From positions 358,002-422,001 of the forward strand of contig DYGS01000001.1 in assembly GCA_020724585.1 (NCBI GenBank): a stretch of DNA of 64,000 bases. The letters are read 5' to 3'. Of this stretch, positions 12,789 to 32,235 are shown piece after piece. Position 1 is the stretch's first letter; the number at the start of each line of letters is the position of its first letter. The position numbers were made by a program, and so were the translations under genes. This stretch comes from Candidatus Microgenomatus sp. (GTDB taxonomy: Bacteria > Patescibacteriota > Microgenomatia > UBA8517). Under the pieces are notes generated by a model. The model ran no database searches and was not told where the DNA came from. It saw nothing but the letters and a program-made list of their open reading frames with translations.

Positions 12789-12927
12789 TTAAATATGTAA
12801 ATATGAATAATACTTAATCTATTATTATTTAATGCTCATTTTGTAAATATGTCAAGGCCGGGCTTTGTTTTAATAAATAATTGCTACTGTTGATTTAGTC
12901 TAAATGTGATTTAATAAAAACATCAAT

Positions 12928-13695: not shown

Positions 13696-13716
13696 ATTAT
13701 TAGAAAATTGTAAATT

Positions 13717-14445
13717 ATGACTTTATATGAAAAATATCATTTAAACCGTCAACAAGAAAAAAGGGTTATAAATGATTTTGATTATACTCATAGGCCATTG
13801 CTGTCAGTTTTGTCAAATATAGACCACAAGAACAAAAGAGTTTTGGATATTGGCTGCGGTACAGGGACTACTTGTTTTTATTTTGCTTCAAAAGGGTCAA
13901 ATGTCTTAGGCATTGATGTTTCTAGGAACGCGATAAAGTTAGCAAACACAAATGCTAAGCGTCTTGGTCTGAAGACTAGAACAAAGTTTATTTTAGCAAG
14001 TTACCCAGAACTAGATTTAAAAGACAAGTACGATTTAATTGTCTGCTCTGAGATATTAGAACATATCAAAGATCATGAAAAAGCTTTAAAAAAAATTCAT
14101 AAGTTGTTATTAAAAGATGGTCTGGTTGTTTTTTCAATTCCATTAACTTCGTCATTTCTATATAGAAAGAAACTATTGAATAAATTCGATAAAGAAGTGG
14201 GTCATCTGAGAAGATATGATGCTTCTGGATTTATAAAGCTTATCAAAAATAGCAAATTCGATATTATAAAAACCAAAAAAAATCAAGGGATACTCCGAGA
14301 TTATTTATTTACATCAACAACAAGGTCAATAATTGTAGCTTTAGCAAATAGATTTAAGGTTATATCAGATTTACTAACTTTTATTGATGAAAAATTGTTC
14401 TTTCTTGGTGTATCAAATTTGGTAGTTTTAGCTAGAAAAAAATGA
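13717..14445 (+). CDS. Class I SAM-dependent methyltransferase
   Basis: VLDIGCGTGTTCFYFASKGSNVLGIDVS (motif I) and LLKDGLVVFS (motif III). Confidence 0.75.
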   Translation: MTLYEKYHLNRQQEKRVINDFDYTHRPLLSVLSNIDHKNKRVLDIGCGTGTTCFYFASKGSNVLGIDVSRNAIKLANTNAKRLGLKTRTKFILASYPELDLKDKYDLIVCSEILEHIKDHEKALKKIHKLLLKDGLVVFSIPLTSSFLYRKKLLNKFDKEVGHLRRYDASGFIKLIKNSKFDIIKTKKNQGILRDYLFTSTTRSIIVALANRFKVISDLLTFIDEKLFFLGVSNLVVLARKK

Positions 14446-15332
14446 AGATTCTTTTTATTTCAAAATATAAGTGGCCGCGGGTGGGAGGGGTGGAGAAGCA
14501 CATAGAGGCTATAAGCCACAAGCTATATGCTTTAAGGTACAAAACAAAAACAATTAAAACAAAAATTATTTCGGGAGAAGATATCAAACAACCACATATT
14601 AAAATTATTGGGCTATTTTATATTTGGTTTTGGTTTTTAAAAAATTATAGATTAATTTTAAATTCTGACATTATTCATATTCATGATGTTTTTATCTGGT
14701 ATCTACCTTTTAGGTTCTTATTTTTTTGGAAAAAAGTATACATAACCTTTCATGGTTGGGAGGGGAAATTTCCAATTCCTTATTGGAATATATTAAATAA
14801 AAAACTTGCTTATTATTTAACAAGCGGAAATATATGTGTTGGGAAATATATTGAAAAGTATTATGGAATAAAGTCCGATTTTGTAATATATGGAGGCGTA
14901 GAAAAAACTCAAAAACTCCAAGAATTAAAAAATCAAAACAAACAAAAAAAAGAAAACACAATTGTTTGGTTGGGGAGATTGGAAAAAGATACGGGATTAT
15001 TAGAGTTTTTATCTTGGTCTAGTAGACTAGTCTACGGATACAGAGGATATAGGATTATTTTTGTGGGGGATGGGAACTTGAGAAAGGAATGCCAAAAATA
15101 CGGAAAGGTTATTAAAAAAGTTAAAGATCCTGAAAAATATTTAATCTCTTCAGAATACTGTGCGCCCTCTGGCTATCTTTCCTATTTGGAAGCTAAAAAC
15201 ATGGGGTGCAAGATAATGACATTTGCTCACAATAAATTAAAAGAAGATTACTGGAAAGAGATAAAAAGGATGAAAACAGTTCCTGGTTGGGATGATGTTT
15301 TAAAAGTCTATTTGAAATTATGGCAAATTTAA
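14442..15332 (+). CDS. Glycosyltransferase, GT4-like
   Basis: N-terminus MKILFISKYKWPRVGGVEKHI is typical of GT4 N-termini. Overlaps neighbouring genes in an operon. Confidence 0.55.
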   Translation: MKILFISKYKWPRVGGVEKHIEAISHKLYALRYKTKTIKTKIISGEDIKQPHIKIIGLFYIWFWFLKNYRLILNSDIIHIHDVFIWYLPFRFLFFWKKVYITFHGWEGKFPIPYWNILNKKLAYYLTSGNICVGKYIEKYYGIKSDFVIYGGVEKTQKLQELKNQNKQKKENTIVWLGRLEKDTGLLEFLSWSSRLVYGYRGYRIIFVGDGNLRKECQKYGKVIKKVKDPEKYLISSEYCAPSGYLSYLEAKNMGCKIMTFAHNKLKEDYWKEIKRMKTVPGWDDVLKVYLKLWQI

Positions 15333-16306
15333 AATTTTTAAAAGATAAAAAAGTTTCTGTTTGTGTAACCATATTCAATGAATCATCAGAGAGCATTAAT
15401 AAACTTCTTAATGCGTTAAACAATCAATCTTTAAAAGCTGATGAAGTGATAGTGGTCGATGCAAGTACAAAAACTCAAAGATTCAAAAAAACAAAAAATC
15501 AAAACAAATTAAAAATAAAAATAATAAATAAAGAGGGAGCAAGTAGAGCCGAGGGGAGAAATACTGCAATAAAAAAAGCCAGAAATGAAATAATTGCTAT
15601 AACTGATGCAGGTTGTGTGCCAAATAAGGATTGGCTAGAAAAAATAACTAAACCATTTAAGATTGCTTCGTCGCAAGCTCCTCGCAATGACAGAGTTTTT
15701 TTCTCCCAAGTTCCTCGTACTGATGTTGTCAGTGGCGGCTACAAAATGGTTGCAAATAACAATTTTGAAAAAGCAGAAAGTGTATTTTTGGGTGTTAGCC
15801 GGGAAAATATGAATAAAGATTTTTTACCTTCTGCTAGGTCGATGGCTTTTACTAAAACAATCTGGAAAAAAGCCGGCGGCTTCCCTGAAAATTTAAATGA
15901 CACGGCAGAGGATAGCCTATTTAATATTAATTTGATTAAGAGGGGGGCGAAGTTTAAAGTAGTAAAAGACGCAGTTGTTTTCTGGGAAATGCCTAAATCA
16001 ATTTATGATTTTGGATTTAAGATATATAGATACGCATTGGGTGATTTGAATTCTGGTATTTGGTGGCACCCAACCAAAAAATGGAAAACACATAACTTGA
16101 AGATACTGAGTATTTTTGCAAGATATGTTGTTGGAATCTGGTTACTATTCTTTAATTACTATTTATTTTTGCTATATGTATTATGCTATATGCTGTATGG
16201 GTATAAAAAAGCAAAGTGGTGGGGGATAATACTCCAATTCGTGTCCGATATTGCAATTATTTCTGCTACAATCAGGTATGTATGGGATATTATAAAGAAG
16301 CCCTAA
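15320..16306 (+). CDS. Glycosyltransferase family 2
   Basis: VSVCVTIFNESSE...VIVVDASTK...AITDAGCVP resembles the GT2 DxD region, followed by C-terminal transmembrane segments. Confidence 0.7.
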   Translation: MANLKFLKDKKVSVCVTIFNESSESINKLLNALNNQSLKADEVIVVDASTKTQRFKKTKNQNKLKIKIINKEGASRAEGRNTAIKKARNEIIAITDAGCVPNKDWLEKITKPFKIASSQAPRNDRVFFSQVPRTDVVSGGYKMVANNNFEKAESVFLGVSRENMNKDFLPSARSMAFTKTIWKKAGGFPENLNDTAEDSLFNINLIKRGAKFKVVKDAVVFWEMPKSIYDFGFKIYRYALGDLNSGIWWHPTKKWKTHNLKILSIFARYVVGIWLLFFNYYLFLLYVLCYMLYGYKKAKWWGIILQFVSDIAIISATIRYVWDIIKKP

Positions 16307-17499
16307 AAGGCATAAGTTGGATGGGGATTCTTCGCGGATTAACAAGGGGCTTAGCTCTTATTAAAATCGCAATTTTAGCCCGTATTTTAAGTCCTCTTCA
16401 GTTTGGAATTTTTGGCATCGCAACTTTAGTTTTGGGATTTCTAGAAATAATGACTGAGACGGGCATAAACATATTTTTAATACAAAAAAAGGATAATATC
16501 GACAGGTATATTAATTCAGCTTGGTTTATTTCAATTATTAGAGGATTTTTAATCGGGTTTTTGATATTTTTATTGTCACCTGTTATTGCGAATTATTTTG
16601 AATCCGAAAGCGCAGTTTATATCATAAGGTTGATATCTCTAGTTCCAATTATTAGAGGATTTATAAATCCCTCATGTGTTAAATTTCAAAAAAATCTGGA
16701 ATTTAGGAAACAATTTTTTTATGAATCTTCTATTTTTGGACTAGATTTTTTACTTACTGTTATTATTGCCTTGATTACCAAGTCTGAAAATTCGCTAGTT
16801 TTGGGAATGATTTTTTCTACGATTTTAGAAATTGTTTTGTCTCATAAAATATTTAGCCCAAGACCTAAATTTGTTTTTGAAAAAGAAAAGACACTGGAAG
16901 TCATAAATAGAGGTAAATGGATAACAGGAGCTGGAGTATTTAATTATTTGTTCCAAAATATTGATGATTTATTTGTTGGAAAAATGATGGGGGCAACTTC
17001 ACTTGGTGTTTATCAACAAGCATATAAATTATCAACCGTACCTGTTTCAGAAGTTGGAGAGGTATTTAATAAAGTGACATTTCCAATTTATACCAAAATT
17101 GAAGGTGATAAAGTACGACTTAGAAAAGCATTTTTTAAAACCCTTTTAGTTATCTGTCTTTTTGTAGTTCCATTTGTAATTATTCTTTTTAAATACCCTG
17201 TAGAAATCGTAAAAATTGTTTATGGAGATAAATGGCTTTCAATGGTACCGGTATTACAAATATTGGCCATTTTTGGACTAATTAAATCTATATTTAACTC
17301 ATTTTTCTCACTCTTTTTAGGTTTAAAAAAACAAGAAGTTGTTACTCTAATTACTTTTATTGGTTCAGCCTTACTATTTTTCCTAACTTTTCCACTTATT
17401 AAAATATTTGGTGTAATTGGAGCAGGATACGCAACAATAATTGCAACACTTTTAGCATATCCATTTGTAATTTATTACTTTTTTAAATTAACAAAATGA
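16282..17499 (+). CDS. Wzx-like oligosaccharide flippase (polysaccharide biosynthesis protein family)
   Basis: Multi-TM protein whose N-terminus (GLALIKIAILARILSPLQFGIFGIATL...IFLIQKKDN) looks like the Polysacc_synt family. The listed ORF starts at 16216, overlapping the GT2 gene. Plausible starts are 16282 or 16321. Confidence 0.65.
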   Translation: MGYYKEALKGISWMGILRGLTRGLALIKIAILARILSPLQFGIFGIATLVLGFLEIMTETGINIFLIQKKDNIDRYINSAWFISIIRGFLIGFLIFLLSPVIANYFESESAVYIIRLISLVPIIRGFINPSCVKFQKNLEFRKQFFYESSIFGLDFLLTVIIALITKSENSLVLGMIFSTILEIVLSHKIFSPRPKFVFEKEKTLEVINRGKWITGAGVFNYLFQNIDDLFVGKMMGATSLGVYQQAYKLSTVPVSEVGEVFNKVTFPIYTKIEGDKVRLRKAFFKTLLVICLFVVPFVIILFKYPVEIVKIVYGDKWLSMVPVLQILAIFGLIKSIFNSFFSLFLGLKKQEVVTLITFIGSALLFFLTFPLIKIFGVIGAGYATIIATLLAYPFVIYYFFKLTK

Positions 17500-18116
17500 T
17501 AGAGATATTAACTCTAAAAAAAAGAAATGTAAAAGATTTTGCAAAAGAAAAAAATTTACTTTTATCAAAAGCTAAATCGGAATGGGTTTTATTTGTCGAT
17601 CCAGACGAAATTGTTTCTGATGAATTAAAAAATGAAATCGAAAGTGTGATAAAAAATACTACAAAAAATGGGTATTACATAAGACGCGTGGATTATCTTT
17701 TTGGTAAAGAACTCAAACATGGGGAATACTCTAGATCAGGCTGGTTTGGGAACACTACACTAATTAGATTAGGTAGAAAAGGTACGGGAATATGGAAAAG
17801 AAAAGTTCATGAATATTGGGATATTCGAGGTGAGGTTGGATATCTTAAAAATCCTTTATTACATTACCCGCACCCAACACTAAAAGATTACATAAATAAC
17901 ATAAATTATTTTTCAACTTTGCACGCTAAATCTTTACATGAGGAAGGGAAAAAATCGACGATAATTAAAATTATTATTTGGCCAGTAGGTAAGTTTATAT
18001 ATAATTACATATTTAGATTGGGATTTTTAGATGGTATGGTAGGCTTTGTATCTGCCTTAGTGATGAGTTTCCACTCATATTTATCATGGTCAAAGTTATA
18101 TTTTGGGCAATATTAA
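17496..18116 (+). CDS. GT2-like glycosyltransferase, N-terminally truncated relative to the family
   Basis: EWVLFVDPDEIV matches the GT2 DxD motif only about 35 aa from the start, so the N-terminal Rossmann half is missing. Its ATG overlaps the flippase stop (ATGA). Confidence 0.5.
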   Translation: MIEILTLKKRNVKDFAKEKNLLLSKAKSEWVLFVDPDEIVSDELKNEIESVIKNTTKNGYYIRRVDYLFGKELKHGEYSRSGWFGNTTLIRLGRKGTGIWKRKVHEYWDIRGEVGYLKNPLLHYPHPTLKDYINNINYFSTLHAKSLHEEGKKSTIIKIIIWPVGKFIYNYIFRLGFLDGMVGFVSALVMSFHSYLSWSKLYFGQY

Positions 18117-19123
18117 TTGTTTTTCCATTTGGCCAACTATTAAAAATTGGCTTTATTAACCTTTTTGATGTCTTGGTTTTGACTCTGGCCATTATTACAT
18201 TATTTAAAAAACCTCAATATCCCGAGTGGTATAAATACTTTCTTAACTTTTTATTGTTTTGTGTTTTTGGGTTAATTCTTAATTATTCACTTTTAACTCT
18301 TAATTCGTCATTATACTTAGTTCGTCTTTGGTCATACTCAATGATTGCAGTTTATATAACTAATTATCTAAAGAACAAAATAGATATAACTAAAAGTTTA
18401 ATGGCAGTTACTTTTTATTCAGCTCTCTTTGGTTTTATCCAGTATTTTATATATCCAGATACTAGGGCCTTTTTTGAGTTTGGTTGGGATGATCACTACT
18501 TGAGGATGATAGGAACATTTTTAGATCCAACTTTTTTGGGTTTAATATTAGTTTTAGGATTAATTTTATCTATTGATTATAAAAAAAATATATTAAGCAT
18601 TTTTTTAAGTAGCGCAATTTTATTAACTTATTCTAGAGTGAGTATTTTACTTGCTTTACTTATTTTAATTTGGAAAAAAAAGATATTTGTAATCCTGTTT
18701 TTAATATTTGTGTTTCTTTTTATTCCTAAAAATATTGGAGAGGGCACAACTATAACTAGAACTGCAAGTGGGGTGAATAAGTTACAAAATTATACTGAAA
18801 GTCTTGAGATTATTAAGAATTCACCCATATATGGCATTGGCTTTAACAATTTATGTAAGTTGAAGGCAGGAAATTACAACTCACATTCATGTTCTGGTCT
18901 GGATTCTTCAATATTATTTTTGTTGGCAACAACAGGTGTAATTGGGACAATGATGTTGTTGTATGCTATAAGTCATATGCCATATGGCTTAGTTCTTAAA
19001 GCTAGCTTTATCGTAGTTTTTATTCATAGTTTATTTTCAAATAGCTTATTCTACCCACATATTATGTTTTGGTTATTTAGTTTAATTGGATTAGAGGGTA
19101 AAATTAACAGTCAACGAAGTTGA
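18086..19123 (+). CDS. O-antigen ligase/polymerase (Wzy_C)-like membrane protein
   Basis: A protein with about 10 TM segments and a LTYSRVSILLALLIL motif. Confidence 0.6.
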   Translation: MVKVIFWAILIVFPFGQLLKIGFINLFDVLVLTLAIITLFKKPQYPEWYKYFLNFLLFCVFGLILNYSLLTLNSSLYLVRLWSYSMIAVYITNYLKNKIDITKSLMAVTFYSALFGFIQYFIYPDTRAFFEFGWDDHYLRMIGTFLDPTFLGLILVLGLILSIDYKKNILSIFLSSAILLTYSRVSILLALLILIWKKKIFVILFLIFVFLFIPKNIGEGTTITRTASGVNKLQNYTESLEIIKNSPIYGIGFNNLCKLKAGNYNSHSCSGLDSSILFLLATTGVIGTMMLLYAISHMPYGLVLKASFIVVFIHSLFSNSLFYPHIMFWLFSLIGLEGKINSQRS

Positions 19124-22133: not shown

Positions 22134-22249
22134 CTTTTATCTTCGCTTTTGATAAGACCCCAATGATATTTATATAGAGGAATTCCAACTAGTAACATTG
22201 CAAGGCTTTCTGCCACTTCTCTTTGTCTTTGTCGAGTATTTTCTTTTTG

Positions 22250-22322
22250 AGCCTACGGTCAGCTACGATCTGACGACCTGCGGTTTACGATACCGCCGCT
22301 CTACCAACTGAGCTACGTAGGC
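22250..22322 (-). tRNA. tRNA-Thr (anticodon CGT) with non-canonical T-loop
   Basis: Hand-folded: acceptor GCCTACG/CGTAGGC, D-arm GCTC-AGTTGGTA-GAGC, anticodon loop ATCGTAA, T-arm GTCAG-ATCGTAG-CTGAC (A54 and U58 deviate from the canonical loop). Confidence 0.6.
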
Positions 22323-22354
22323 TTAATCTTGTAGCGAAGTTGGCCAAGCTATGC

Positions 22355-22377
22355 TTACCAACTGAGCTACGTAGGCT
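22355..22377 (-). other. Duplicated 5' fragment (acceptor plus D-arm, 22 nt) of the adjacent tRNA-Thr
   Basis: An exact copy of GCCTACGTAGCTCAGTTGGTA that does not continue into a tRNA fold. Confidence 0.6.
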
Positions 22378-22389
22378 GGCTCCTTATGA

Positions 22390-22460
22390 GCGGCGGACGG
22401 GATTTGCGCCCGCGACCTTCTCCTTGGGAAGGAGACATTCTACTACTGAACTACCGCCGC
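22390..22460 (-). tRNA. tRNA-Gly (anticodon CCC) with non-canonical T-loop
   Basis: Acceptor GCGGCGG/CCGCCGC, D-arm GTTC-AGTAGTA-GAAT, anticodon loop TTCCCAA, T-arm GCGGG-CGCAAAT-CCCGT. Confidence 0.55.
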
Positions 22461-22517
22461 GAATACCACAGCACAAGAAAACTAACCAATTATAACATTT
22501 TGCGGGTAGGTGAGCGT

Positions 22518-23069
22518 CTATCTTGGAATTGTTAAGATATTTCCAGAATGGATCAGGTCGGGGTTTGTAAGTTTATTTATTTTTGCAATTTCTACCCATT
22601 TATATCCATCTCCATAACTTCTGACTGCAATATCCCACAAAGAATCTCCCTTTTGTACTGTGTAGGTGTTTCCTTGGATTGAGTCAGTTTCAGTGTTTGC
22701 ACCGGCAACCTCCTCTTTGCCTAATTCTGGAATTGTCAATTTTTGTCCAACTTCAATTTGGCTTGCATTGGAAAGCTTATTTTCTGTTGCAATATCAATC
22801 CATTTAAATCCATCTCCATAGTAGTTTTCTGCAATTTTCCAAAGCGAATCACCTGTTTTAACTTCATATGAATTTAGGGCTGTTTCTTCTTCTTGCTGCG
22901 TGCTAGTTCCTGTTAAGAGTTCTGTTGGTATACTGCTTTTGGTATTTTTGATGTATCTAAAAGCTAGGCTAGAAACTGCAATTACAACAATTAACCCCAA
23001 GACGAAAGAAATTGAAGATTCATTAAGTTTAATTGTTTTCAATAATTTTTTGATGTCCAATTTAATCAC
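22518..23069 (-). CDS. Membrane-anchored protein with two LysM domains
   Basis: Two repeats of YTVQKGDSLWDIA...GYKW..IA..N.L.....I..G..L.IP (the LysM consensus) after an N-terminal TM segment. Confidence 0.8.
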   Translation of the reverse strand: MIKLDIKKLLKTIKLNESSISFVLGLIVVIAVSSLAFRYIKNTKSSIPTELLTGTSTQQEEETALNSYEVKTGDSLWKIAENYYGDGFKWIDIATENKLSNASQIEVGQKLTIPELGKEEVAGANTETDSIQGNTYTVQKGDSLWDIAVRSYGDGYKWVEIAKINKLTNPDLIHSGNILTIPR

Positions 23070-23173
23070 CCCTTTTTCCTCAGGGCAGAAGATAACTTAC
23101 CTGAAATTTATAGCAGATATTAATTATCTGTCAAGAGAGAGGTTGGTATAATTTAAACAATATTTAGAAATAC

Positions 23174-24073
23174 TTATATAAAATCCATAATGTATTTCTT
23201 AATAATATTCAAGTTGCTTTTGATTTTACCATCTCTTAGGAAAGCCTGTGGTAATTTATTGTCTTCAATGTATATCCCCTTATTAATATCTGGTGTTCTG
23301 ATATAAAAAGACCTAACCATATCATTGTTTAGACGCGAATGGCCTTCTGGATAATCAAAACCTCTATCTATTCCATATTTGCCATCTATACAGTTTCTAA
23401 GCGTAAAATTAATTACATGTACTTTTACATCATGTCTAACACCCTTAAGAAGTGAACTAAAAGTCTTCTTATCCACAGGATATTTTTGATTACCGTCCCA
23501 AGTTTGACCAAGAGGCAATGTCAGATCTCTTAATAGGTAATCCGTAGGATCAAGCAAAACTACATTTTTTATACCTAAATCCTCCTTATTAACAACCACA
23601 AGTACAGCACTAATGGCACCGCCGCTTGTTGCAACTAAGTTTATTTCTTTAATTTTTATAATTTCTCTGATTTTTGAGATGATCTCTACAAGATTTAATA
23701 GCTGTGTTTTTGGAGCAGGAAACCGCATGTCTGTCTCCATTTGTTCAAACGAGATTGCTGCTATATTTGAGTCTTGAATTTCATTAAATAAAAACTTAGC
23801 TAGCGGCCTCAATTTTAATCTATTACCACCATCGCCGTCGATCAAGACCATTAATTTCTCACATCTACCCCTTTTCAGGTATAGATCAAATGCAGCAGAA
23901 CTTTTATTTGAGGTATCAAGAAAAAATGTTTTCATTAAAAAAATTATACCAAAACTTCTAATCTCGTCACGGGGTATATCCAATTTAATATAGTTATTGA
24001 AACTAGCTTTCAATGCGGGCGTTGGTAGACTACTTATACAACTTTTATTCTCCAAAATAATTTGCTTTTTCAA
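23174..24073 (-). CDS. Hypothetical protein, possible alpha/beta-hydrolase fold (AxSxG nucleophile elbow VATSGGA)
   Basis: The motif LVATSGGAISAV resembles a nucleophile elbow. No other clear signature. Confidence 0.3.
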   Translation of the reverse strand: MKKQIILENKSCISSLPTPALKASFNNYIKLDIPRDEIRSFGIIFLMKTFFLDTSNKSSAAFDLYLKRGRCEKLMVLIDGDGGNRLKLRPLAKFLFNEIQDSNIAAISFEQMETDMRFPAPKTQLLNLVEIISKIREIIKIKEINLVATSGGAISAVLVVVNKEDLGIKNVVLLDPTDYLLRDLTLPLGQTWDGNQKYPVDKKTFSSLLKGVRHDVKVHVINFTLRNCIDGKYGIDRGFDYPEGHSRLNNDMVRSFYIRTPDINKGIYIEDNKLPQAFLRDGKIKSNLNIIKKYIMDFI

Positions 24074-24096
24074 TCAACTTATCCTATAATAGTTAC

Positions 24097-24654
24097 ATGG
24101 ATTTACTTAAATTTAGTCCTGGCCCAAAAGAACAAATAGAAAAAGCTTCAAACAGACTCACACAAGATGATGCTGATAAATTTGCCGTAGATAAACCACT
24201 AAATGATGACTTCTTGATTTCCTTTACAGCTAGAACTATGCTTGAATTTGATGATGGAGATTTAGAACTTAGAATTTCGCTTACAAAATACAAGAAAAGT
24301 GGAGAGTTAACTCAAGAGATACTTTTACAAGAACCAGACGGTAAAAAGTTGTACAGATTAGACATAAGTTCAAGTCCTAAGAAAGATGAAGAGAAAGAAA
24401 AGATGTCTTCACTTGTTTCAGAAATTAAGGATCCGAAAGGGGCAAATGCACTTTCAAAAATGCTTTCTGACACCTTTGGGACTTCAGGTAATGTAACTGT
24501 TTCAAGAATAGACAATTGGGCAGAAACAAATATAACAACCGATAGTGCGAGAAAATTGATCGAAGTTGGAACTCCAAAGTTACCCAGCAATACAAGATTA
24601 ACTCTTCATGAGTTTAGACAACAAATGGGGACAGATTTCCCCCAACTAAACTAA
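24097..24654 (+). CDS. Hypothetical protein
   Basis: ORF with an acidic/Lys-rich middle. No recognisable motifs. Confidence 0.35.
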   Translation: MDLLKFSPGPKEQIEKASNRLTQDDADKFAVDKPLNDDFLISFTARTMLEFDDGDLELRISLTKYKKSGELTQEILLQEPDGKKLYRLDISSSPKKDEEKEKMSSLVSEIKDPKGANALSKMLSDTFGTSGNVTVSRIDNWAETNITTDSARKLIEVGTPKLPSNTRLTLHEFRQQMGTDFPQLN

Positions 24655-24711
24655 GCAAAGCTAAATTTCTGTAATTGACGAAATACTAGTTAGTCGCTTG
24701 AATAATCTAAT

Positions 24712-25314
24712 TTAGTGTAGTTCATCAGCGAGTATTTCAAAATCAATTTGATACTCACCATGTAATCCATCTGAGCTGTTAACTACGAACGTCACTACGT
24801 CATTGTTGGTTGTATTTTTAATATAGAATTTATTGATGTAGCAATCTCCCACGCCGACTAGTGGAAAATCTTTGAGAATTTCAATTAAAAGTCTTATAAA
24901 AATCCTCCAGTTTCTTGAGTTGAGCAAATCAGATTCAAGTTTGTAGTTTAGACAAAATTTTTCAAGATCTTTTTTTAAATCTAAAAATAGCGTGATGTTT
25001 TTCATTAACTCAAACGGGTCTCGTTTGTTATTACTCTTAATTAAATACCTTGCGTATTCATCTAGTTTTCTTCTTGCACCTGTTCCATTTAAATGGTTGT
25101 GCAATATCCAGTCATTAAACAATGATAAAGTTGGATATTCCATCTCCCATATTTTTCTATCATTCTTGAATGTGTGTTCCAAGAATTTTCTAATCTGTCC
25201 CATTATATAAAATGTCTCTGACTCCAAACTAATACCACTTTGTATAAGAGTGTTAAGCTTACTGATTATTCTTGATTCTGTACTCATTGAAATTTTATTT
25301 CCTATAAACAACAT
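24712..25314 (-). CDS. Hypothetical protein, downstream partner in an operon with the HExxH protein
   Basis: Its start overlaps the stop of the 25295..26782 gene. No motif recognised. Confidence 0.4.
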   Translation of the reverse strand: MLFIGNKISMSTESRIISKLNTLIQSGISLESETFYIMGQIRKFLEHTFKNDRKIWEMEYPTLSLFNDWILHNHLNGTGARRKLDEYARYLIKSNNKRDPFELMKNITLFLDLKKDLEKFCLNYKLESDLLNSRNWRIFIRLLIEILKDFPLVGVGDCYINKFYIKNTTNNDVVTFVVNSSDGLHGEYQIDFEILADELH

Positions 25315-26782
25315 ATTCTTTATTTATCATGGTTTCATACCAATCAACATCCCAATCTAAGCCCATCCATATTGATAACAAGTTGTTTAAATGTTTGCGA
25401 AAATTATTTATCAAATTAGGTTTTGTTTTAATTAGATTCACATTATAATCACGTATAAAATCCTCAATATCTTTATTGCCAAATGTGTTGACAAAATGTA
25501 TTACATCACTAACATTTAAAACTAAGGAGTGAAACGGGTGATTTTCCGATGCATTTAAAACAACGTAATCTGCTTTATTATTTTTATTAAACCAAGATTT
25601 AAATTTATTTCTCAGGTCCTGAACTGTATTGTAGATAACTACATCTGGTTTTCTTGAATTGGGGAAGTAATTCAAATCTTTTGATTCAATATCATAAAGA
25701 CCCCACTTCACTATTAAAGTTTTCCCGTTAAATTCATTTTTTAAGAGTCTTGACAACTCAACAGTATCAAGGCCAATTAGATATTTCTCACAGGTTCTAG
25801 TAAAAGCTAAAAAGCCTACCTCGTATTTTTTGTTTAGTAAGTTTTCTACTCTACTTTTGTAGTCCCAATCATCACTAAGTCTAGTTACAAATACCGCTTC
25901 TGTTACATCTGAATAATTGATAATATCGTCTATTTCCCAAAGCGCAATGCTTGATTCAACTATATTCAGATTCATATTTGCTATAAATGTATTATTACTT
26001 GCTTGTTGAATTACTAAACCCCCTTGCGGAGCGTCTTTAATGTCATCTTCTGTAAAATAATAGTGTTTGTTTTTGGTTAAATCATGCATATAATTTAGGA
26101 AGTTGGCAACATCACGTTTTGTTACATCTGGAAAAAATTTAATACCAGAACGATCGGCTATTTCACGGACATCTTTCGTTACAAGAAATTGATTATAATG
26201 CAACAAATCTATAAGTTTCATAAAACGTTTGTCAGGGTTATTATCCTCATTATCTAAATACGAAATGAAGTTATTTGGTTTTTTAAATAAATCATATTCT
26301 ACAATGGCCTTTCTGATACCAGTATGCATAGCAAGATGAGAGATCTTTTTAGTAAATTCTTCTCTATATCGTTTTCCCATGTCCATTACAAACATAAGTT
26401 TTTTAAGCCTATCTAAATAATCATAAGGTAAGTGTTCGAATGCCCAAATTATTGATCTTTCTTTACCAACATAAGATCTATGCATAAGCATTTCCATCAA
26501 CGAAGCGCTACCTTCTTGAACAAAAAGTTGAGATTCGTACAATTTCTCATATATTTTGCGTTTATCAACTTCATCAATACTGGCAATGTGTGGTAGAAGT
26601 GAGTGGATTGTCTGTGTTGCAAGTCCAAAATCAGTGTTACTTCCCAAAACACTATGTGTTATCTCGTGAACATAAGTGATTTTTGCTATAACGGGATCAA
26701 GAAACAAACTCTTGTAATCCAAGCCAATCCACCTTTCTGTAGTGTTATAACGACCCGAAATACTATGCCAAAAACTTTGCAT
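25295..26782 (-). CDS. Large HExxH-motif protein (putative zinc metallopeptidase-like N-terminal domain)
   Basis: N-terminal ITYVHEITHSVLG (HExxH) followed by a downstream Glu (FVQEGSASLME). The 495 aa product is encoded on the island. Confidence 0.45.
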   Translation of the reverse strand: MQSFWHSISGRYNTTERWIGLDYKSLFLDPVIAKITYVHEITHSVLGSNTDFGLATQTIHSLLPHIASIDEVDKRKIYEKLYESQLFVQEGSASLMEMLMHRSYVGKERSIIWAFEHLPYDYLDRLKKLMFVMDMGKRYREEFTKKISHLAMHTGIRKAIVEYDLFKKPNNFISYLDNEDNNPDKRFMKLIDLLHYNQFLVTKDVREIADRSGIKFFPDVTKRDVANFLNYMHDLTKNKHYYFTEDDIKDAPQGGLVIQQASNNTFIANMNLNIVESSIALWEIDDIINYSDVTEAVFVTRLSDDWDYKSRVENLLNKKYEVGFLAFTRTCEKYLIGLDTVELSRLLKNEFNGKTLIVKWGLYDIESKDLNYFPNSRKPDVVIYNTVQDLRNKFKSWFNKNNKADYVVLNASENHPFHSLVLNVSDVIHFVNTFGNKDIEDFIRDYNVNLIKTKPNLINNFRKHLNNLLSIWMGLDWDVDWYETMINKEYVVYRK

Positions 26783-26844
26783 ATTTGAATTATAGTTTCG
26801 TTTTTTGATTTAACAAGTCATCCTATTTCAAATATAATATATGT

Positions 26845-27279
26845 ATGTCAACAATAAAACAAAAAATAGCAATTGCAAAATTAGTGGAAAATGGTGGAAA
26901 TGTAAATAAAGCTATGGTTTCTGCTGGGTATTCAAGGACAACAGCAAAAACACCTAAAAAACTAACAGAAAGCTTGGGATGGAAGGAATTGGTAGAAAAA
27001 TACCTTTCTGAGGAAAAATTGATGAAAACTCATTTATCTCTACTTAATAGTAGTAATTGGAGAGCAAGAGCTAACGCACTTGATAAAGCATATAAGATAC
27101 TAGGTAAATATATAAAACAGGTCAGATTTACAACATACGATGAGTTTGCAGACTTAACTGATGAAGAATTAGATATAAAGTTGGCTGAACTTGAAGAAAA
27201 AATAGCTAGGTTTAAAAAATATACAAAAGTAGACGATACGAATCTAGGAATTTCATCACTTAGTCTCAATAACCTTTAA
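26845..27279 (+). CDS. Phage terminase small subunit-like protein (Terminase_2-like HTH)
   Basis: KQKIAIAKLVENGGNVNKAMVSAGYSRTTAKT resembles the TerS N-terminal consensus (..gNatqAai.AGYs.ktA..). No large terminase subunit is in the window. Confidence 0.55.
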   Translation: MSTIKQKIAIAKLVENGGNVNKAMVSAGYSRTTAKTPKKLTESLGWKELVEKYLSEEKLMKTHLSLLNSSNWRARANALDKAYKILGKYIKQVRFTTYDEFADLTDEELDIKLAELEEKIARFKKYTKVDDTNLGISSLSLNNL

Positions 27280-27917
27280 GTATTCTTTTCTTTGCTCCCA
27301 AATTGGTTTTAGTTCATTGTTTTCATAGTAAAACCTAACTAATGTGAGTCCAATATCACAGCACTTATTTGTTTCTTCATTAAAAGTCGAATAATAAAGA
27401 TAAAATCCGTTTCCACTATTTGAAGGCGTAAAAGTAACACCGTGTAAATTTGTAGCTTCAAAAATTATATTATTTGAATGATCGATAATGAATATATTAT
27501 GAGGTGGATAATCTAGGTTATCTGAATAAATATAAATATCTTCGTAAACACCATCACCTGTTATGTCGAAGGAGTCGTGAGGATCGTCAATACCATACTC
27601 TGTAGAACCACCAAATGGTCTAGAAATTGTTTTATAGTCAAAAGGTGTATAAACCCTGTTGGCATGTCGGAAACTAATATATCTCGACTAATATAATAAC
27701 CTTTGTATTTGTAATCAGTCGTATCAAAATACTTGGATTTGATATGCCCCATCACACCATTTGTATTTTTGGTTAATCCATTTATATTAGGATTTGGTGG
27801 TTGATTGTAAACATAACTAACAGCATATCCGACTGAAAATATAATCAAGGTTAATGTGATCCTTCTAATAAGTAAGAAAACTCTAGTTTTAAATAGTGAT
27901 CTATTATTAAATTTCAT
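27262..27917 (-). pseudogene. Frameshifted gene (N-terminal TM protein), interrupted around 27560-27667
   Basis: The listed ORF 27561..27917 ends where a second frame continues open for 137 more codons down to 27262, with the shift between 27561 and about 27667. A homopolymer-associated frameshift or a sequencing error. Confidence 0.4.
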
Positions 27918-28216
27918 TTAAAAATTCTCGAAATTAAAAAGCCAGTAATGAATGTTATTGTGAATGCACTAAATAAATTTAAAACCAGCCAAATGATATT
28001 TGGATTTGCGCTTACTTTTGTGTTAAGCACGATTTCTTGTACTTGAACTAATCTTGTAAATCTAGAGAACGATTTGTAATTGAAAACAAACAAATGCAAT
28101 AGTGAAACTACACACCATAGCAAACAAAGTTTTATTAAAGAATAACCTTGAATAGTGCCGATCCCCACCCAAATTCCTCCAAATATGTTTGATACAATCA
28201 AATTAGATAAAAACAT
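27914..28216 (-). CDS. Small 3-TM membrane protein
   Basis: A hydrophobic ORF translationally coupled to its neighbours. Confidence 0.4.
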   Translation of the reverse strand: MFLSNLIVSNIFGGIWVGIGTIQGYSLIKLCLLWCVVSLLHLFVFNYKSFSRFTRLVQVQEIVLNTKVSANPNIIWLVLNLFSAFTITFITGFLISRIFK

Positions 28217-28219
28217 AAC

Positions 28220-28888
28220 TTATGGAACTACATCATAAAAAGCAGTTGTATATAGATCGTGAGAACCATAGCAGGAATATCCATCTCTATTATCAATAGA
28301 AACACTAATATATCTTTTCGTTCCTAAAATTACATTGGCAGTGTTAATGTCAATAAAGTTATCTTGAGACCAATCTTTAGATGTAATTGAACGTTGGTCG
28401 GTATTTTCAATACCCAAAGAGTCAAATCTGTAATACAATGGCAATCCTTTTGGATCCTCTGCTGTAACCGTTAATCTTAAACTACTAATTTCACCTCTTT
28501 TAAACAAGCCATTTATATCATTACTATTATTACCAAGACTGTCCTGAACCCTAATTATTTTTGGACAATGCATGTCGTTATAGCTTGGTGTAGGTGTAGG
28601 TTTTGGTGTTGAAATCATAATAGATGTGATATTTGGTATTTCAGTTGCTTTTCTTGATGATGGCGGTGTAATGGATGGATAAATTGGTGTGGGTATATCT
28701 GAATTTTTAACAACTGCATTTTCCGTAGGCTTAATACTGTTTGCAACTACTATTTCTTTTGGTAAAGAATTTAGTTGTGCTATATCATTATCTTGTGCAA
28801 TACCAAGTACAGAAGAAACAGTAAGTAAAAAGCCACTAATTAGTAGTTTTGTGTGTAAAACGAGCTTCGCCAATATAAGTTTTATCAT
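28220..28888 (-). CDS. Secreted hypothetical protein
   Basis: A signal-peptide/TM N-terminus, a Pro/Thr linker and a beta-rich C-terminus. Confidence 0.4.
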   Translation of the reverse strand: MIKLILAKLVLHTKLLISGFLLTVSSVLGIAQDNDIAQLNSLPKEIVVANSIKPTENAVVKNSDIPTPIYPSITPPSSRKATEIPNITSIMISTPKPTPTPSYNDMHCPKIIRVQDSLGNNSNDINGLFKRGEISSLRLTVTAEDPKGLPLYYRFDSLGIENTDQRSITSKDWSQDNFIDINTANVILGTKRYISVSIDNRDGYSCYGSHDLYTTAFYDVVP

Positions 28889-28889
28889 A

Positions 28890-28995
28890 AAAAAGCTCCC
28901 AGCCAGCGATAGCTTGCGCTACCCATATTCTTTCGAATACGACCGTTCAAGGATGCTCTGACTAGGAGCTTATTTCCTTGAACGGATTTTTATAA
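28890..28995. promoter_or_regulatory. Nested inverted repeats in a divergent intergenic region (possible structured RNA or operator)
   Basis: A perfect 11-bp inverted repeat CCGTTCAAGGA/TCCTTGAACGG with a 21-nt spacer, followed by ATTTTT. An outer AAGCTCC/GGAGCTT pair and a small AGCG..CGCT hairpin are nested with it. Confidence 0.35.
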
Positions 28996-29092
28996 GCCAT
29001 GCCCAAGATTGGGTTTAGGCCATTAACTGTCTATAATTTATCACGTTAATTGAATAAATATCAACATCTGGTATTATTTTGTATATATTAAA

Positions 29093-29749
29093 ATGAAGAT
29101 TGATCCAAGCAGTGAGTATGATAGGCTTCTCTATGAAGCAATGAAAGTTATTGATTTTCAACTTCGAGCCTATAACCAAAATCAAATATATTTTACAATT
29201 CAAACTAAACCCTTTAATAAAGATTTATATGCAACTCAAATTGTTTTAGATCGTCTTATGAAATTAGGATTTGTCGTATATGGAAAAAAGGACGATGTTA
29301 TCGATGACGTTCAAATTTGTGAAAATGATCATTATTATGCAATAGGTATAAAAATGACTGTTATAGATATTCATCTATTTGATCGCATATACGCAAAATA
29401 TAAAAGCATTTTCCAAAATAACGGTAAAGATAAACTAGTTATCAGTCGAAAAGGAAAAGCTACTTTTATGTCAGAAGGGATTACATATACTGGTTCACTT
29501 AAACCTAAAAGTAATTTATATCAGGCGTTATTAAAGTTAGCAGAAGATAATACTATATTCACTACAGCAGATGAATTAAATAAATCAATGACAAAGACAA
29601 AAATTAACAACAATTCGAGTGATCCAATCGAAAGGGCAAGACAGGTGATCAAGAATATAAAAAGGAAACTGGGTTACAAAGGCAAAAGGTTAATAAAGTC
29701 AAGCTATGACCAGTTTAAACTACTTCCAACAGTCGAAATAGTTAGTTAG
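29093..29749 (+). CDS. Hypothetical protein (island)
   Basis: ORF only, with a basic C-terminus. Confidence 0.35.
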   Translation: MKIDPSSEYDRLLYEAMKVIDFQLRAYNQNQIYFTIQTKPFNKDLYATQIVLDRLMKLGFVVYGKKDDVIDDVQICENDHYYAIGIKMTVIDIHLFDRIYAKYKSIFQNNGKDKLVISRKGKATFMSEGITYTGSLKPKSNLYQALLKLAEDNTIFTTADELNKSMTKTKINNNSSDPIERARQVIKNIKRKLGYKGKRLIKSSYDQFKLLPTVEIVS

Positions 29750-29976
29750 CTTCAAGTTTACACAAAGCTGCTATTTTTTTAGCCTCAACTTTTACATTTT
29801 AATTACCATACAGTTTATAGAAAATATATTTATATGAACTGGTTAAATGAAAATTTAAAAAATGAAATTAAAAAAGTTTTTGAGCCAAGATATGATAGGA
29901 AACTTAACAATGTTGAAGTAGAAAACATTGCACGTAGTCTAGTTTTCATAGTAGAGAGATATATAAAAAATAAAAA

Positions 29977-30210
29977 ATGGAAATAGGTAACACATATTCT
30001 ACTAGAGATATAGCAGAGGCGTCTGCGTTACTAGCTAGGGGACAAAAACTAATTGCTGTAAATAAAGTTGACAGTGTTTGTTATTTTAATTTTAAAGATG
30101 CTCAAGTTTGTAAACAAACATCAAATGAGTACTTCTTTGGAGAGCTATTGGTTAATGCAAGATTATTTCATGAATCCTTTATCAGATTGAAAAACAAAAT
30201 TTTTCAGTGA
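29977..30210 (+). CDS. Small hypothetical protein (island)
   Basis: ORF only. Confidence 0.3.
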   Translation: MEIGNTYSTRDIAEASALLARGQKLIAVNKVDSVCYFNFKDAQVCKQTSNEYFFGELLVNARLFHESFIRLKNKIFQ

Positions 30211-30238
30211 AAAGAATTGTGAAAGTTGAGTAACTAAT

Positions 30239-30607
30239 ATGGACAATGATATTAAAATTAAAATTATATTAAAGGACAAAGGAAAGTTATTAGCAAATGC
30301 AAACATTTATTTGCCCACACTTGAATACGGAATTGTTGTCATTAAAGGATTTCAAGTTTGGAAAAGTGAGCGAGAAAATACTCGTTTGCACAATGATATG
30401 TTAAACATTCAGCCACCGTCAACTTGGGGCAAATATAAAGGGAATATAACATTTGTATTTTTTGAGGACGAACCTAAGTGGTATAAAATTGAAAGTCTAA
30501 TATATGATAAATATATCGAAAGCATGAACAAACAAAATGTAAAGGAATTTGATCTGGACGAAATTGATATAGGTATTGAAAAAAGTAAAACGCTATTTAC
30601 TAATTAG
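30239..30607 (+). CDS. Hypothetical protein, weak SpoVG-like N-terminal pattern
   Basis: IKIKIILKDKGKLLANANIYLPTLEYGIVVIKGFQVWKSE loosely resembles the SpoVG beta-hairpin region. Weak. Confidence 0.3.
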   Translation: MDNDIKIKIILKDKGKLLANANIYLPTLEYGIVVIKGFQVWKSERENTRLHNDMLNIQPPSTWGKYKGNITFVFFEDEPKWYKIESLIYDKYIESMNKQNVKEFDLDEIDIGIEKSKTLFTN

Positions 30608-30662
30608 TAACTATATAGTTATAGTTACTATATAAAAACTATATGATTACTGATAAGTATAA
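30606..30662. promoter_or_regulatory. AT-rich palindrome cluster immediately upstream of the serine recombinase (candidate att/recombinase-binding site)
   Basis: A perfect 14-bp palindrome TAACTATATAGTTA at 30608-30621, followed by overlapping TAGTTACTATA, CTATAT and AGTAA/AGTTA repeats up to the integrase ATG. Confidence 0.35.
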
Positions 30663-30682
30663 GTAATAGTTAATATATTAAA

Positions 30683-32200
30683 ATGGAAATTAAATACATA
30701 AGATACTCTAGAAAATCATCTGAAGCAAAGGAAAGACAGATCGCTTCAATAACCGATCAAAATTTAGAATGTGAGGAGTATGCAATCAAAAACAATTTAG
30801 TTATTGAATATCGATTAGAAGAAAGCAAATCTGCATATAAACCAGACAGGCGCGAAAAATTTACTGAGATGATTCAAATGATTGAATCGGGTTTAGCAAA
30901 CGGCATTATTACTTGGAAACTTGATAGATTGAGTAGAAACCCGAAAGAGGGTGGAATAATAATGCAACTGCTAAGTGATGGAAAGATAAAGGAAATAAGA
31001 ACGCCTATGGGAGATATTTACACACCCGATAGCGACCCTCTTATACTTCAATTGCATTTAGGTATGGCGAATCAGTACAGTAAAGTGTTAAGTCAAAACG
31101 TCTTACGAGGTTTGAAACATAAAGTTGAGCGTGGTGAATATCCAAGCGATGCAATTTATGGATATAAAACTGCAGGTGAAAAAGGAAGAAAAAATTTAGT
31201 AGTTGATCCATTCGAAGCCCCACTAATTAAAAGTTCATTTGAACTATTTGCCACAGGTCAATACTCGCTCAGTCATATCGCAAACCATTTATATTCGAAA
31301 GGTTTAGTTTCAACAAGCAAAAACAAACTAACTAAAGAAGGTATTAGGCGAATTTTGAAAAACTCAACTTATTATGGCTATTTTAAAAGAAAAGGAGAAT
31401 TTTTTAAAGGAACTTATGAGCCACTTATAACTAAACAGTTATTTGATTCTGTTCAGGAAGTATTATCAAACAGGTCTAAACCTCAAGTAAACATCTGGGA
31501 TAAATATAGCTACAACGGGTTATTAAAATGCCCTAGTTGTGGCTCTGCTATAACTACAACAGTAAAAGAAAAATTCTATAAAGGTACAAACAGAAAAGCT
31601 ACGTATTTTTACCTTCATTGTACTAAGCGTAAAGGATCATGTATGCAAAAGAGTGTTACTTTACAAGATTTTGAAGATAAGCTATTGGAACAGCTTTCAA
31701 AGATAACAATTGACCAAGAAGTATGGGAATTAGGTATAAAACTCTTAAAGGAAAAAAGTAAGCAAGAAATTTCAAAAGGTGGTGTTGTGACTGAAAAGTA
31801 TACACATCAGTTTAAGATTGCACAGGCCAAGGTTTTTAATTTAGTTGAAATGAGAGCAAATGGCGAACTGACAAAAGAGGAATTTATGATTCAAAAACAA
31901 CTCTATTTACAGGATCTAGCTAGAATTGAAAGTTTGTTAAAAGATAGTGCGCGTACTGGTTTTAATTGGTTGGAACTTGCTGAAAAATTATTGAACAACG
32001 CTTTTGAGCTTCGTGATATTATGAAGCTTGGAAAGCCAGAGGAAAAAAGAGAGCTACTTATGCAGGTTGGTGAGAACTTCTATTTAAGTGACAAAAAACC
32101 AGAATTTAGCTTCAAAAAACCTTATGATATTCTGTTAAAACCTGTTAGTCAGTTTTCAATGCGGGATCGACGAGACTCGAACTCGCAGCCTTTGCCGTGA
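30683..32200 (+). CDS. Large serine recombinase (phage-type serine integrase)
   Basis: An N-terminal resolvase domain with catalytic Ser (YIRYSRKSS..Q), a recombinase domain, and a zinc ribbon (CPSCGS...HCTKRKGSC). The last ~13 codons overlap tRNA-Asp. Confidence 0.8.
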   Translation: MEIKYIRYSRKSSEAKERQIASITDQNLECEEYAIKNNLVIEYRLEESKSAYKPDRREKFTEMIQMIESGLANGIITWKLDRLSRNPKEGGIIMQLLSDGKIKEIRTPMGDIYTPDSDPLILQLHLGMANQYSKVLSQNVLRGLKHKVERGEYPSDAIYGYKTAGEKGRKNLVVDPFEAPLIKSSFELFATGQYSLSHIANHLYSKGLVSTSKNKLTKEGIRRILKNSTYYGYFKRKGEFFKGTYEPLITKQLFDSVQEVLSNRSKPQVNIWDKYSYNGLLKCPSCGSAITTTVKEKFYKGTNRKATYFYLHCTKRKGSCMQKSVTLQDFEDKLLEQLSKITIDQEVWELGIKLLKEKSKQEISKGGVVTEKYTHQFKIAQAKVFNLVEMRANGELTKEEFMIQKQLYLQDLARIESLLKDSARTGFNWLELAEKLLNNAFELRDIMKLGKPEEKRELLMQVGENFYLSDKKPEFSFKKPYDILLKPVSQFSMRDRRDSNSQPLP

Positions 32201-32235
32201 CAGGGCAACGCTCTAACCAATTGAGCTACGACCCC
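32162..32235 (-). tRNA. tRNA-Asp (anticodon GTC)
   Basis: Acceptor GGGGTCG/CGATCCC, D-arm GCTC-AATTGGTTA-GAGC, anticodon loop CTGTCAC, T-arm GCGAG-TTCGAGT-CTCGT (canonical). Confidence 0.8.

Follow-up and report, generated by a model that had tools for sequence, protein, structure and literature searches.

A serine-recombinase integrative element with a putative orphan small terminase at tRNA-Asp in a candidate phyla radiation bacterium

What occupies the roughly 10 kb between a tRNA-Thr/tRNA-Gly cluster and tRNA-Asp in a Candidatus Microgenomatus genome (GenBank assembly GCA_020724585.1, contig DYGS01000001.1), and could it be a phage satellite? The window analysed here is a 64,000-nt stretch of that contig (positions 358,002 to 422,001), to which all window coordinates refer. 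A first-pass annotation, made from the sequence alone, had described an AT-rich island ending in a large serine recombinase and carrying a small terminase (TerS) gene with no large terminase (TerL), and had read it as a satellite of the phage-inducible chromosomal island (PICI) type or as a decayed prophage. Phage satellites are familiar from Proteobacteria and Firmicutes, and we found no description of any in Patescibacteria in the literature. Bacteria of the candidate phyla radiation (CPR) have tiny genomes and few CRISPR systems, so that their gene exchange and their resistance to phages still call for explanation. Our conclusions differ in strength. We hold with high confidence that positions 24008-32165 form an integrative element, set at the tRNA-Asp 3' end by its serine recombinase. 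Its packaging by way of a helper phage is a tentative proposal, and the combined statement, an integrative element that is also packaged as a satellite, falls just short of an even chance.

The surroundings of tRNA-Asp identify both the host and the insertion. The PolX gene just right of tRNA-Asp matched 20 loci in reference genomes, and its nearest relatives (55-74% identity) come from metagenome-assembled genomes (MAGs) of Candidatus Woesebacteria or Patescibacteria, or from evidently mislabelled MAGs. By these relationships the host is evidently a CPR bacterium of Candidatus Woesebacteria; a CPR-like host had been raised as a possibility. The order tRNA-Gly, LysM, (tRNA-Asp), PolX, LemA is kept in 14 syntenic Woesebacteria loci, and in relatives where tRNA-Asp sits at the PolX locus it lies about 70-500 bp from the LysM gene. 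That gene (window 22518-23069) was found by tblastn in 10 relatives, in synteny, whereas none of the 13 open reading frames (ORFs) called between 23174 and 32200 is present in any of the 14 loci by the same method. The island is therefore truly inserted DNA, and the LysM gene belongs to the host. Thus the tRNA-flanked island of about 10 kb proposed by the first-pass annotation is real as an insertion, but its bounds take in about 1.5 kb of host DNA, and the tRNA-Thr/tRNA-Gly cluster is not a boundary of the element. Related genomes offered tRNA-Asp loci without the island genes, and att-like ends could be defined, but no empty site was found.

The integration target, tRNA-Asp(GTC) (32161-32235, minus strand; ARAGORN and Rfam, 70.8 bits), is intact, and the element proper appears to extend from about 24008 to 32165, some 8.15 kb, ending at the 3' terminus of this gene. 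A repeat search placed the 12-bp direct repeat TTTCAATGCGGG at 24008-24019 (attL core) and at 32154-32165 (attR core), the right copy lying across the tRNA-Asp 3' terminus. It is the sole exact repeat of at least 12 nt between the tRNA-Asp 3' junction and the inserted DNA, and the chance of such a 12-mer match is about 0.01 (31/3000 Markov simulations). The repeat covers the final 6 nt of tRNA-Asp, of which TGCGGG is the reverse complement. The left end is also conserved elsewhere. Positions 24012-24063 (plus strand; the P' arm of attP, now within attL) match positions 801-848 of L247 (L-numbers are labels of the compared contigs and loci) with 83% identity over 52 nt (E 4e-8). L247 and L246 are the contigs with the closest related element, and its recombinase is 66% identical to that of the window. 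In these contigs the left-end stretch is preceded by AATGCGGG and set amid otherwise unrelated DNA, and the sequence conserved between the window and L247 begins directly after TGCGGG. At the right end of the L247 element, the recombinase again enters AATGCGGG, followed by tRNA-Asp-like sequence. We infer that attL spans 24008-24063 and the attR core 32154-32165, with the crossover inside the shared core.

On this arrangement, the large serine recombinase would join attP (reconstructed as ...TAGTCAGTTTTCAATGCGGGCGTTGGTAGACTAC...) with an attB formed by the tRNA 3' end and its downstream flank. The predicted attP junction is AGTCAGTTTTCAATGCGGGCGTTGGTAGAC (also given as ...GTTAGTCAGTTTTCAATGCGGGCGTTGGTAGACTACTTATAC...), and the predicted attB junction is CTAGCTTTCAATGCGGGATCGACGAGAC (also given as ...GAAACTAGCTTTCAATGCGGGATCGACGAGACTCGAAC...). 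With the crossover placed inside the shared AATGCGGG core, tRNA-Asp would stay intact. Because attP would lie inside the 3' end of the integrase gene, the C-terminal residues of the integrase would be exchanged on integration, the predicted tail being ...SMRALVDYLYNFYSPK in the free form and ...SMRDRRDSNSQPLP in the integrated form. When the arms are joined computationally, the integrase of the free form comes to 507 aa and its 16-residue tail differs from the integrated one.

A crossover in the tRNA-Asp anticodon loop is a minor alternative. It draws on L247, where the sequence right of the core tracks tRNA-Asp only to the anticodon loop and then diverges, which speaks against our placement; an intron or a chimeric contig may explain this break instead. 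An element that supplies the whole tRNA-Asp 3' half through such a crossover was set aside, since no displaced tRNA half occurs in the window, and it is further disfavoured by the L247-conserved left end, which starts right after TGCGGG. The junction in L247 (8640-8773), with a 5' exon that ends in U and a preceding base G, would suit a group I intron in the anticodon loop; 85 nt of contig follow the divergence, and Rfam reports nothing there. Searches for the attP junction or for related left ends gave nothing in the viral contigs searched, nor in metagenome contigs, a collection from which even an exact 24-mer of the window is not returned; direct repeats of at least 11 nt were not found at the ends of the L035 and L032 elements.

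The recombinase that would catalyse this integration is encoded at 30683-32200 (plus strand, 505 aa). It has the Resolvase (PF00239, 2.6e-18), Recombinase (PF07508, 6.2e-15) and Zn_ribbon_recom (PF13408, 3.7e-6) domains, all above the Pfam cutoffs, and matches PHROG 95 'integrase' at 2e-70. The catalytic S12 and R10/D81/R82/R85 are invariant in our recombinase alignment (A6), and by these features the protein is an intact large serine recombinase of the integrase type. The overlap with the 3' end of tRNA-Asp that had been noted earlier is confirmed: over its final 40 nt (last 14 codons) the gene runs antisense into the 3' part of tRNA-Asp.

The integrase closes a rightward operon that largely follows the backbone of L247. 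Its order is a 218-aa orphan protein (29093-29749, 40% identical to the L247 protein in the same position), a 50-aa protein (29834-29986, 60% identical to a 56-aa L247 protein, again in the same position), a 77-aa DUF5659 protein (29977-30210; PF18903, 4.1e-5, above cutoff; 54% identical to its L247 counterpart), a 122-aa orphan protein (30239-30607) and the integrase, all on the plus strand. DUF5659 proteins also lie near the recombinase in L243 and L244. The 122-aa protein, directly upstream of the integrase, has no match in Pfam, PHROGs or NCBIfam; speculatively, and by position only, it could be a directionality factor. Divergent promoter-like sites at 29021-29093 part the rightward operon from a leftward one. 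No recognisable repressor is found at these sites in the window; L247 has an HTH_3 protein there.

The gene that makes the element look like a satellite encodes a 144-aa protein (26845-27279, plus strand). The gene is intact, and we accept its product, on gene neighbourhood and fold, as a probable small-terminase homolog with a presumed TerS function. The protein has 11 relatives in a 5.8-billion-protein index, and a profile of these TerS relatives retrieved 102 relatives in IMG/VR. Among the best 80 of those 102 loci, 52 have an ORF of at least 300 aa within 350 nt downstream, and these 52 ORFs include 26 Terminase_6N, 17 Terminase_3 and 11 GpA_ATPase matches (families may overlap per protein). 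In viral contigs, TerS relatives usually stand just ahead of a large terminase. Over 134 aa, acidic C-terminal helix included, the window protein shows 36% identity to the TerS P0011 of the phage-like L038, where P0011 is followed by a large terminase (hhalign 95.9% against a 52-member profile) and an SU10-type portal. An AlphaFold2 model is all-helical (pLDDT 73), and its closest folds in the PDB belong to the DNA-binding domain of the SF6/SPP1-like small terminase (TM 0.80, E ~1). In PHROGs, the protein matches weakly a family of unknown function and a DNA-binding protein family. One relative has a different neighbour: the ORF directly after the TerS homolog of L041 (2523-4070) is a Cpn60/TCP-1 chaperonin (1.4e-39), not a terminase.

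No large terminase accompanies this gene. As the first-pass annotation had stated, large terminase, portal and capsid genes are absent from the element by Pfam, PHROGs and NCBIfam, and no tail or lysis genes were detected in 24008-32165. A 495-aa protein encoded next to TerS (25295-26782, minus strand) was rejected as a large terminase, with a probability of 0.3% in a profile comparison with 52 large terminases and a structure model that also argues against it. An invariant HExxH and a downstream Glu mark it instead as a putative zinc metallopeptidase. The TerS and 495-aa genes are divergent, with divergent promoter-like sites between them. The HExxH family has about 30 members across phyla, has no Pfam family, and gave no relatives in IMG/VR. 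In three of the four recombinase elements known here to carry it (window, L329, L243), the 495-aa gene adjoins a small TerS-like or DUF5681 protein (window 25295-27279; L329 9522-11488; L243 5062-7000), and in L244 a 366-aa membrane protein precedes the 495-aa homolog instead. From gene order, the TerS-like gene and its HExxH partner suggest a two-gene module. A known defence system was also sought in the island: PADLOC gave one weak partial GajB match, to the TerS-like ORF (E 0.007), which we rejected.

Related elements show that the combination of TerS and recombinase recurs. The TerS family is found in five other recombinase-bearing elements: L032-34, L239-241, L242, L035-37 and L329. Three of these (L032-34, L239-241, L329) adjoin tmRNA (transfer-messenger RNA) and L035-37 adjoins tRNA-Phe. 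The recombinase 3' end overlaps a convergent tRNA or tmRNA 3' end in L035/36, L032-34, L329, L242, L247 and L323/324; the L239-241 contigs stop before the position of such an overlap. No large terminase was seen in the five elements by Pfam searches of called genes, with explicit checks of some L032 and L035 proteins, and a 407-aa gene that follows TerS in L032 was rejected as one. L242 and L032 have TerS (77%), the recombinase (52%) and two small proteins in common; hence, this type of 4-5 kb, at the least, has been kept together as a unit. L329 carries a divergent TerS/495-aa pair that is 46% and 39% identical to the window pair, and L243 and L244 combine the 495-aa protein, DUF5659 and the recombinase. 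The L247 backbone has no TerS or virion genes and carries a kinase and a NUDIX gene. Given a backbone in common with L247 and a TerS/HExxH module in common with L329, the window element is two modules combined.

More distant relatives have a different make-up. The window recombinase used alone as a query found no close relatives in IMG/VR; a profile of four recombinases retrieved 192, of which 80 loci were kept for the counts below. A large-terminase-like gene is present in 42 of the 80, often directly upstream of the recombinase. These distant loci show a module of a ParB/N6_N4 methylase, proteins of about 250 aa and about 140 aa, a large terminase and the serine recombinase, with examples in L249-L328 (IMG/VR) and L131 (L253 5923-11269; L300 5983-11263; L131 1004-5403). 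Among 92 ORFs from eight recombinase-clade loci, portal and capsid do not figure among the commonest Pfam families, which are those of restriction-modification, reverse transcriptase, AAA_15/21 and GmrSD. Loci of the L249-L328 type are possibly a terminase-bearing satellite or defence-island family. A convergent tRNA lies within 190 nt of the recombinase stop in only about 6-8 of the 80 clade loci.

A second feature recurs with these recombinases. The leftward operon of the window begins with a LOOT RNA (Rfam RF03000) at 28908-29021 (minus strand), which scores 77.8 bits against a gathering score of 46.4 and covers the full model (1-121 of 121). It lies 19 nt upstream of the gene for a 222-aa protein, with a promoter-like site (29064-29035) just upstream of it. 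Rfam confirmed 11 further LOOT RNAs, in L131 (5922-6043), L242 (517-642), L243 (4838-4960), L253, L270, L272, L285, L288, L297, L300 and L302. All 12 LOOT loci carry a related large serine recombinase; in every instance the RNA lies 18-102 nt upstream of an ORF, and it is usually divergent from the integrase operon. With a LOOT profile, viral loci selected by recombinase (0.92 Mb) gave 10 matches, and those selected by TerS (0.98 Mb) gave none. A scan of viral contigs with a 14-base LOOT pattern returned mostly chance matches, L131 alone being real. The genes downstream of LOOT vary, so it looks like an element-specific leader and not a metabolite riboswitch. LOOT may be a regulatory leader of serine-recombinase elements.

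Behind the LOOT RNA, the leftward operon is predicted from its sequence to encode envelope or secreted proteins, one of them now frameshifted. The first gene (28220-28888, minus strand) encodes the 222-aa protein, which has an N-terminal hydrophobic segment (secreted or anchored) and no Pfam or PHROGs match. It is followed by a 100-aa predicted membrane protein (27914-28216, minus strand; hydrophobic, no family match) and by a pseudogene of a 217-aa membrane-anchored protein (27256-27917, minus strand) with a shift near 27654. Its frameshift, which the first-pass annotation had called, is borne out by an intact 217-aa protein of L247 (3791-4444) that the ORF 27561-27917 and the open frame 27256-27654 jointly match, and the same frameshift is present in the independent assemblies L001 and L002.

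How should these parts be read together? The element is probably a mosaic whose modules come from a common stock of serine-recombinase/LOOT elements found in CPR and related genomes. Its orphan TerS most likely would let the large terminase and capsids of a helper phage package the element, following phage-satellite logic, and this copy may be partly decayed and currently immobile. As the gene contents stand, we regard the satellite reading as probably the most economical account of a repeated TerS-without-TerL design. A wider version, in which CPR/Patescibacteria and their neighbours host an unrecognised family of elements of about 4-12 kb, is doubtful as a whole. In that version the family would be true satellites hijacking CPR-phage packaging, each with a recombinase ending inside a tRNA/tmRNA 3' end, phage-derived terminase genes (small only, or small and large) and no virion genes. 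LOOT would be a dedicated regulatory RNA, a leader controlling the cargo operon, and the window element would be a mosaic member.

Several observations weigh against packaging, and some against mobility or foreign origin altogether. Pfam Terminase_2 (PF03592), the family named at the outset as a check of the TerS gene, scores only E=0.32 (12.1 bits against a cutoff of 26.1) with the 144-aa protein, so that the claim of a TerS-like gene failed there but stood on neighbourhood and fold; the sub-threshold alignment spans the N-terminal 59 residues, the helix-turn-helix. The TerS assignment is one of remote homology, and the fold E-values are about 1. The L247 backbone persists without TerS and can therefore do without it. 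In no ORF is there a primase, helicase or Rep domain, and no repressor or excision factor was recognised (Pfam, PHROGs, PADLOC and NCBIfam for both). The frameshifted gene of the leftward operon is a sign of decay. All five samples with the organism have the identical integrated element, and neither an excised circle, nor an empty site, nor polymorphism between strains turned up among them; the metagenome search for a circle or empty site does not return even the window's own contig. No candidate helper phage was identified; L085, the sole TerS-bearing viral contig from the same metagenome, was rejected because its 62% GC is not credible for a 33% GC host. Finally, the AT-richness emphasised by the first-pass annotation is real yet small (31.3% GC for the element, 34.9% for the remaining window), and the polysaccharide-synthesis/Wzy region at window 10000-19000 is AT-rich like the island (31.1% GC); hence, low GC alone is no marker of foreign DNA in this genome. 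The tetranucleotide distance of the island, 0.177, is however the highest among 9-kb windows (mean 0.118, s.d. 0.024).

Part of this evidence fits a remnant in decay, once a temperate phage or a larger element with a terminase, that has lost TerL and other genes by deletion and is now immobile, which the first-pass annotation had offered as its alternative and which we consider unlikely. The frameshift, the lack of recognised replication or regulatory genes and the identical, always integrated copy in five samples all fit decay, and with a large-terminase-like gene in 42 of the 80 distant recombinase relatives, often immediately upstream, loss of TerL from such an ancestor is plausible. However, TerS and recombinase without TerL recur in at least five further elements, which differ in recombinase lineage and in target, and independent random deletions beside TerS are an improbable source of this. 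The element keeps an intact integrase and recognisable ends, the equally compact backbone of L247 is free of virion genes, and even the TerL-bearing IMG/VR relatives show defence cargo and not portal or capsid. This recurrence in independent elements, together with the intact integrase and att-like ends, argues against simple random decay. A cargo cassette resembling the staphylococcal cassette chromosome (SCC) is less probable again. Here a serine-recombinase element at a housekeeping-gene 3' end would carry accessory or defence genes, and the TerS-like helix-turn-helix protein would have no part in packaging but be a DNA-binding regulator or partner of the HExxH protein, perhaps interfering with phage packaging. 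The pair is conserved and divergent in the window and L329, with divergent promoter-like sites between the genes, and in L243 the place directly ahead of the 495-aa homolog is taken by another small protein (DUF5681). Recombinase relatives carry restriction-modification, reverse-transcriptase and Abi-like cargo, the L247 backbone does without TerS, and the recombinase weakly matches the CcrA/B/C models, all points in favour of a cassette. Yet the match of the 144-aa protein to an authentic phage TerS runs from end to end and takes in the acidic C-terminal helix, and shorter TerS-like genes stand in L242/L032-type elements that have no 495-aa partner; moreover, PADLOC shows no known defence protein in the island and the 495-aa family has no IMG/VR relatives.

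The comparative data also largely refute a fourth account, with hardly any probability left to it, in which there is no mobile element and a lineage-specific variable region beside tRNA genes carries a recombinase that acts as a local invertase or resolvase. In its favour, the orientation of tRNA-Asp flips among relatives, several lack it at this locus, and the GC difference is modest and not unique in the window. The terminal direct repeats, the conservation of the left end in L247 despite unrelated flanks, modules in common with elements at tmRNA or other tRNAs in other organisms, the highest tetranucleotide deviation in the window and the integrase-type large serine recombinase architecture all stand against it.

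Between the tRNAs, most ORFs are orphans by Pfam, PHROGs, NCBIfam and PADLOC, the exceptions besides the integrase being LysM, the hydrolase-like gene and DUF5659. The first gene inside the element encodes a 185-aa orphan (24097-24654, plus strand) that is absent from relatives, and a 200-aa orphan (24712-25314, minus strand) overlaps the 3' end of the 495-aa gene; neither has a match in the four collections. One of two other assemblies holds a further irregularity: L001 1-552 (Logan contig SRR6488399_40) has an inverted, 93%-identical copy of residues 190-349 of the 495-aa gene joined to a normal element, either an assembly hairpin artefact or a strain variant.

Just outside the element lies a 253-aa alpha/beta-hydrolase-like gene (minus strand, weak family match). 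The ORF as listed is 23174-24073, with a start over-extended by 46 codons into attL. The 94 cluster representatives (about 250 aa) of this gene align from residue 47, so the true gene is 23174-23935, with its ATG at 23935, outside the element. It sits between the LysM promoter and attL, is absent at the locus in all relatives, and may be a remnant of an earlier insertion at the same tRNA. On the far side, tRNA-Thr(CGT) (22249-22322) and tRNA-Gly(CCC) (22388-22460), both on the minus strand (ARAGORN and Rfam), have between them an exact 22-nt copy of the tRNA-Thr 5' end (22356-22377, compared with 22302-22323), and the order of the FNR-like gene and tRNA-Thr is unlike that in relatives L006 and L008. 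The copy and the changed order may be the scar of an earlier rearrangement or integration. Near PolX, the plus strand carries tRNA-Asp in L005, L007 and L015, the minus strand in the window, L011, L012, L017, L018 and L022, and the gene was not found upstream of PolX in L006, L008, L009 and L010. The PolX/tRNA-Asp locus of Woesebacteria (L005-L022) is, to judge from these arrangements, a rearrangement hot spot.

An 8.2 kb element with a predicted attP and attB offers a directly testable model. The recombinases suggest a possible new targeting rule, serine recombinases at conserved tRNA/tmRNA 3' ends, which in well-studied systems is a habit of tyrosine integrases, and their short att sites may be of practical interest. 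The orphan LOOT motif gains a concrete setting as the leader of a cargo operon, which makes its function approachable, and the pairing of the TerS homolog with the 495-aa HExxH protein would be a new two-gene module.

Compared with known systems, the element shares with PICIs (e.g. SaPIs, Staphylococcus aureus pathogenicity islands) the small, site-specific island with an integrase at one end, its own TerS, no TerL or virion genes, divergent transcription units and accessory cargo. However, the first-pass assignment to the PICI type fails by definition: the integrase is a large serine recombinase whereas PICIs have a tyrosine integrase, and no primase or replication-initiator module, Stl/AlpA-type regulator or capsid-remodelling genes were detected in the element. 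It is also smaller, at only 8.2 kb, its host is a CPR bacterium, and helper dependence is only putative here.

Among temperate phages, phiC31, Bxb1 and A118-type phages have the same order of Resolvase, Recombinase and zinc-ribbon domains, a short att core and an integrase beside attP. Unlike them, the element has no virion, lysis or replication genes, its target is a tRNA 3' end, and its attP would lie inside the 3' end of the integrase gene. In Mx8 and SSV1, too, attP lies within the integrase gene and integration alters the integrase C-terminus. The element resembles them in a crossover inside the coding sequence that would change this terminus, but Mx8 and SSV1 are complete viruses with tyrosine integrases, whereas the element would swap only the last ~14 codons of a serine recombinase. 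In well-studied systems such as mycobacteriophages, tRNA genes are targets of tyrosine integrases, and the sites of serine integrases lie elsewhere (PMC10654092). For LOOT, Rfam lists only a candidate sRNA, whereas here it is a consistent 5' leader opposite the integrase operon, a context in serine-recombinase elements for which we found no description in the searchable literature.

The SCC/Ccr elements are alike in that a large serine recombinase integrates them at the very 3' end of a conserved housekeeping gene, which is preserved, and in their short flanking direct repeats and variable mosaic cargo. They differ in that the element has a single recombinase and not a CcrAB pair (it scores 66-74 bits with the NCBIfam CcrA, CcrB and CcrC models, far below their cutoffs of 700-900), targets tRNA/tmRNA and not rlmH, and adds a TerS homolog and the LOOT RNA. 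By analogy, the element would act like a cross between a PICI, with its orphan TerS, and an SCC cassette, with its serine recombinase, housekeeping-gene 3' end and mosaic cargo.

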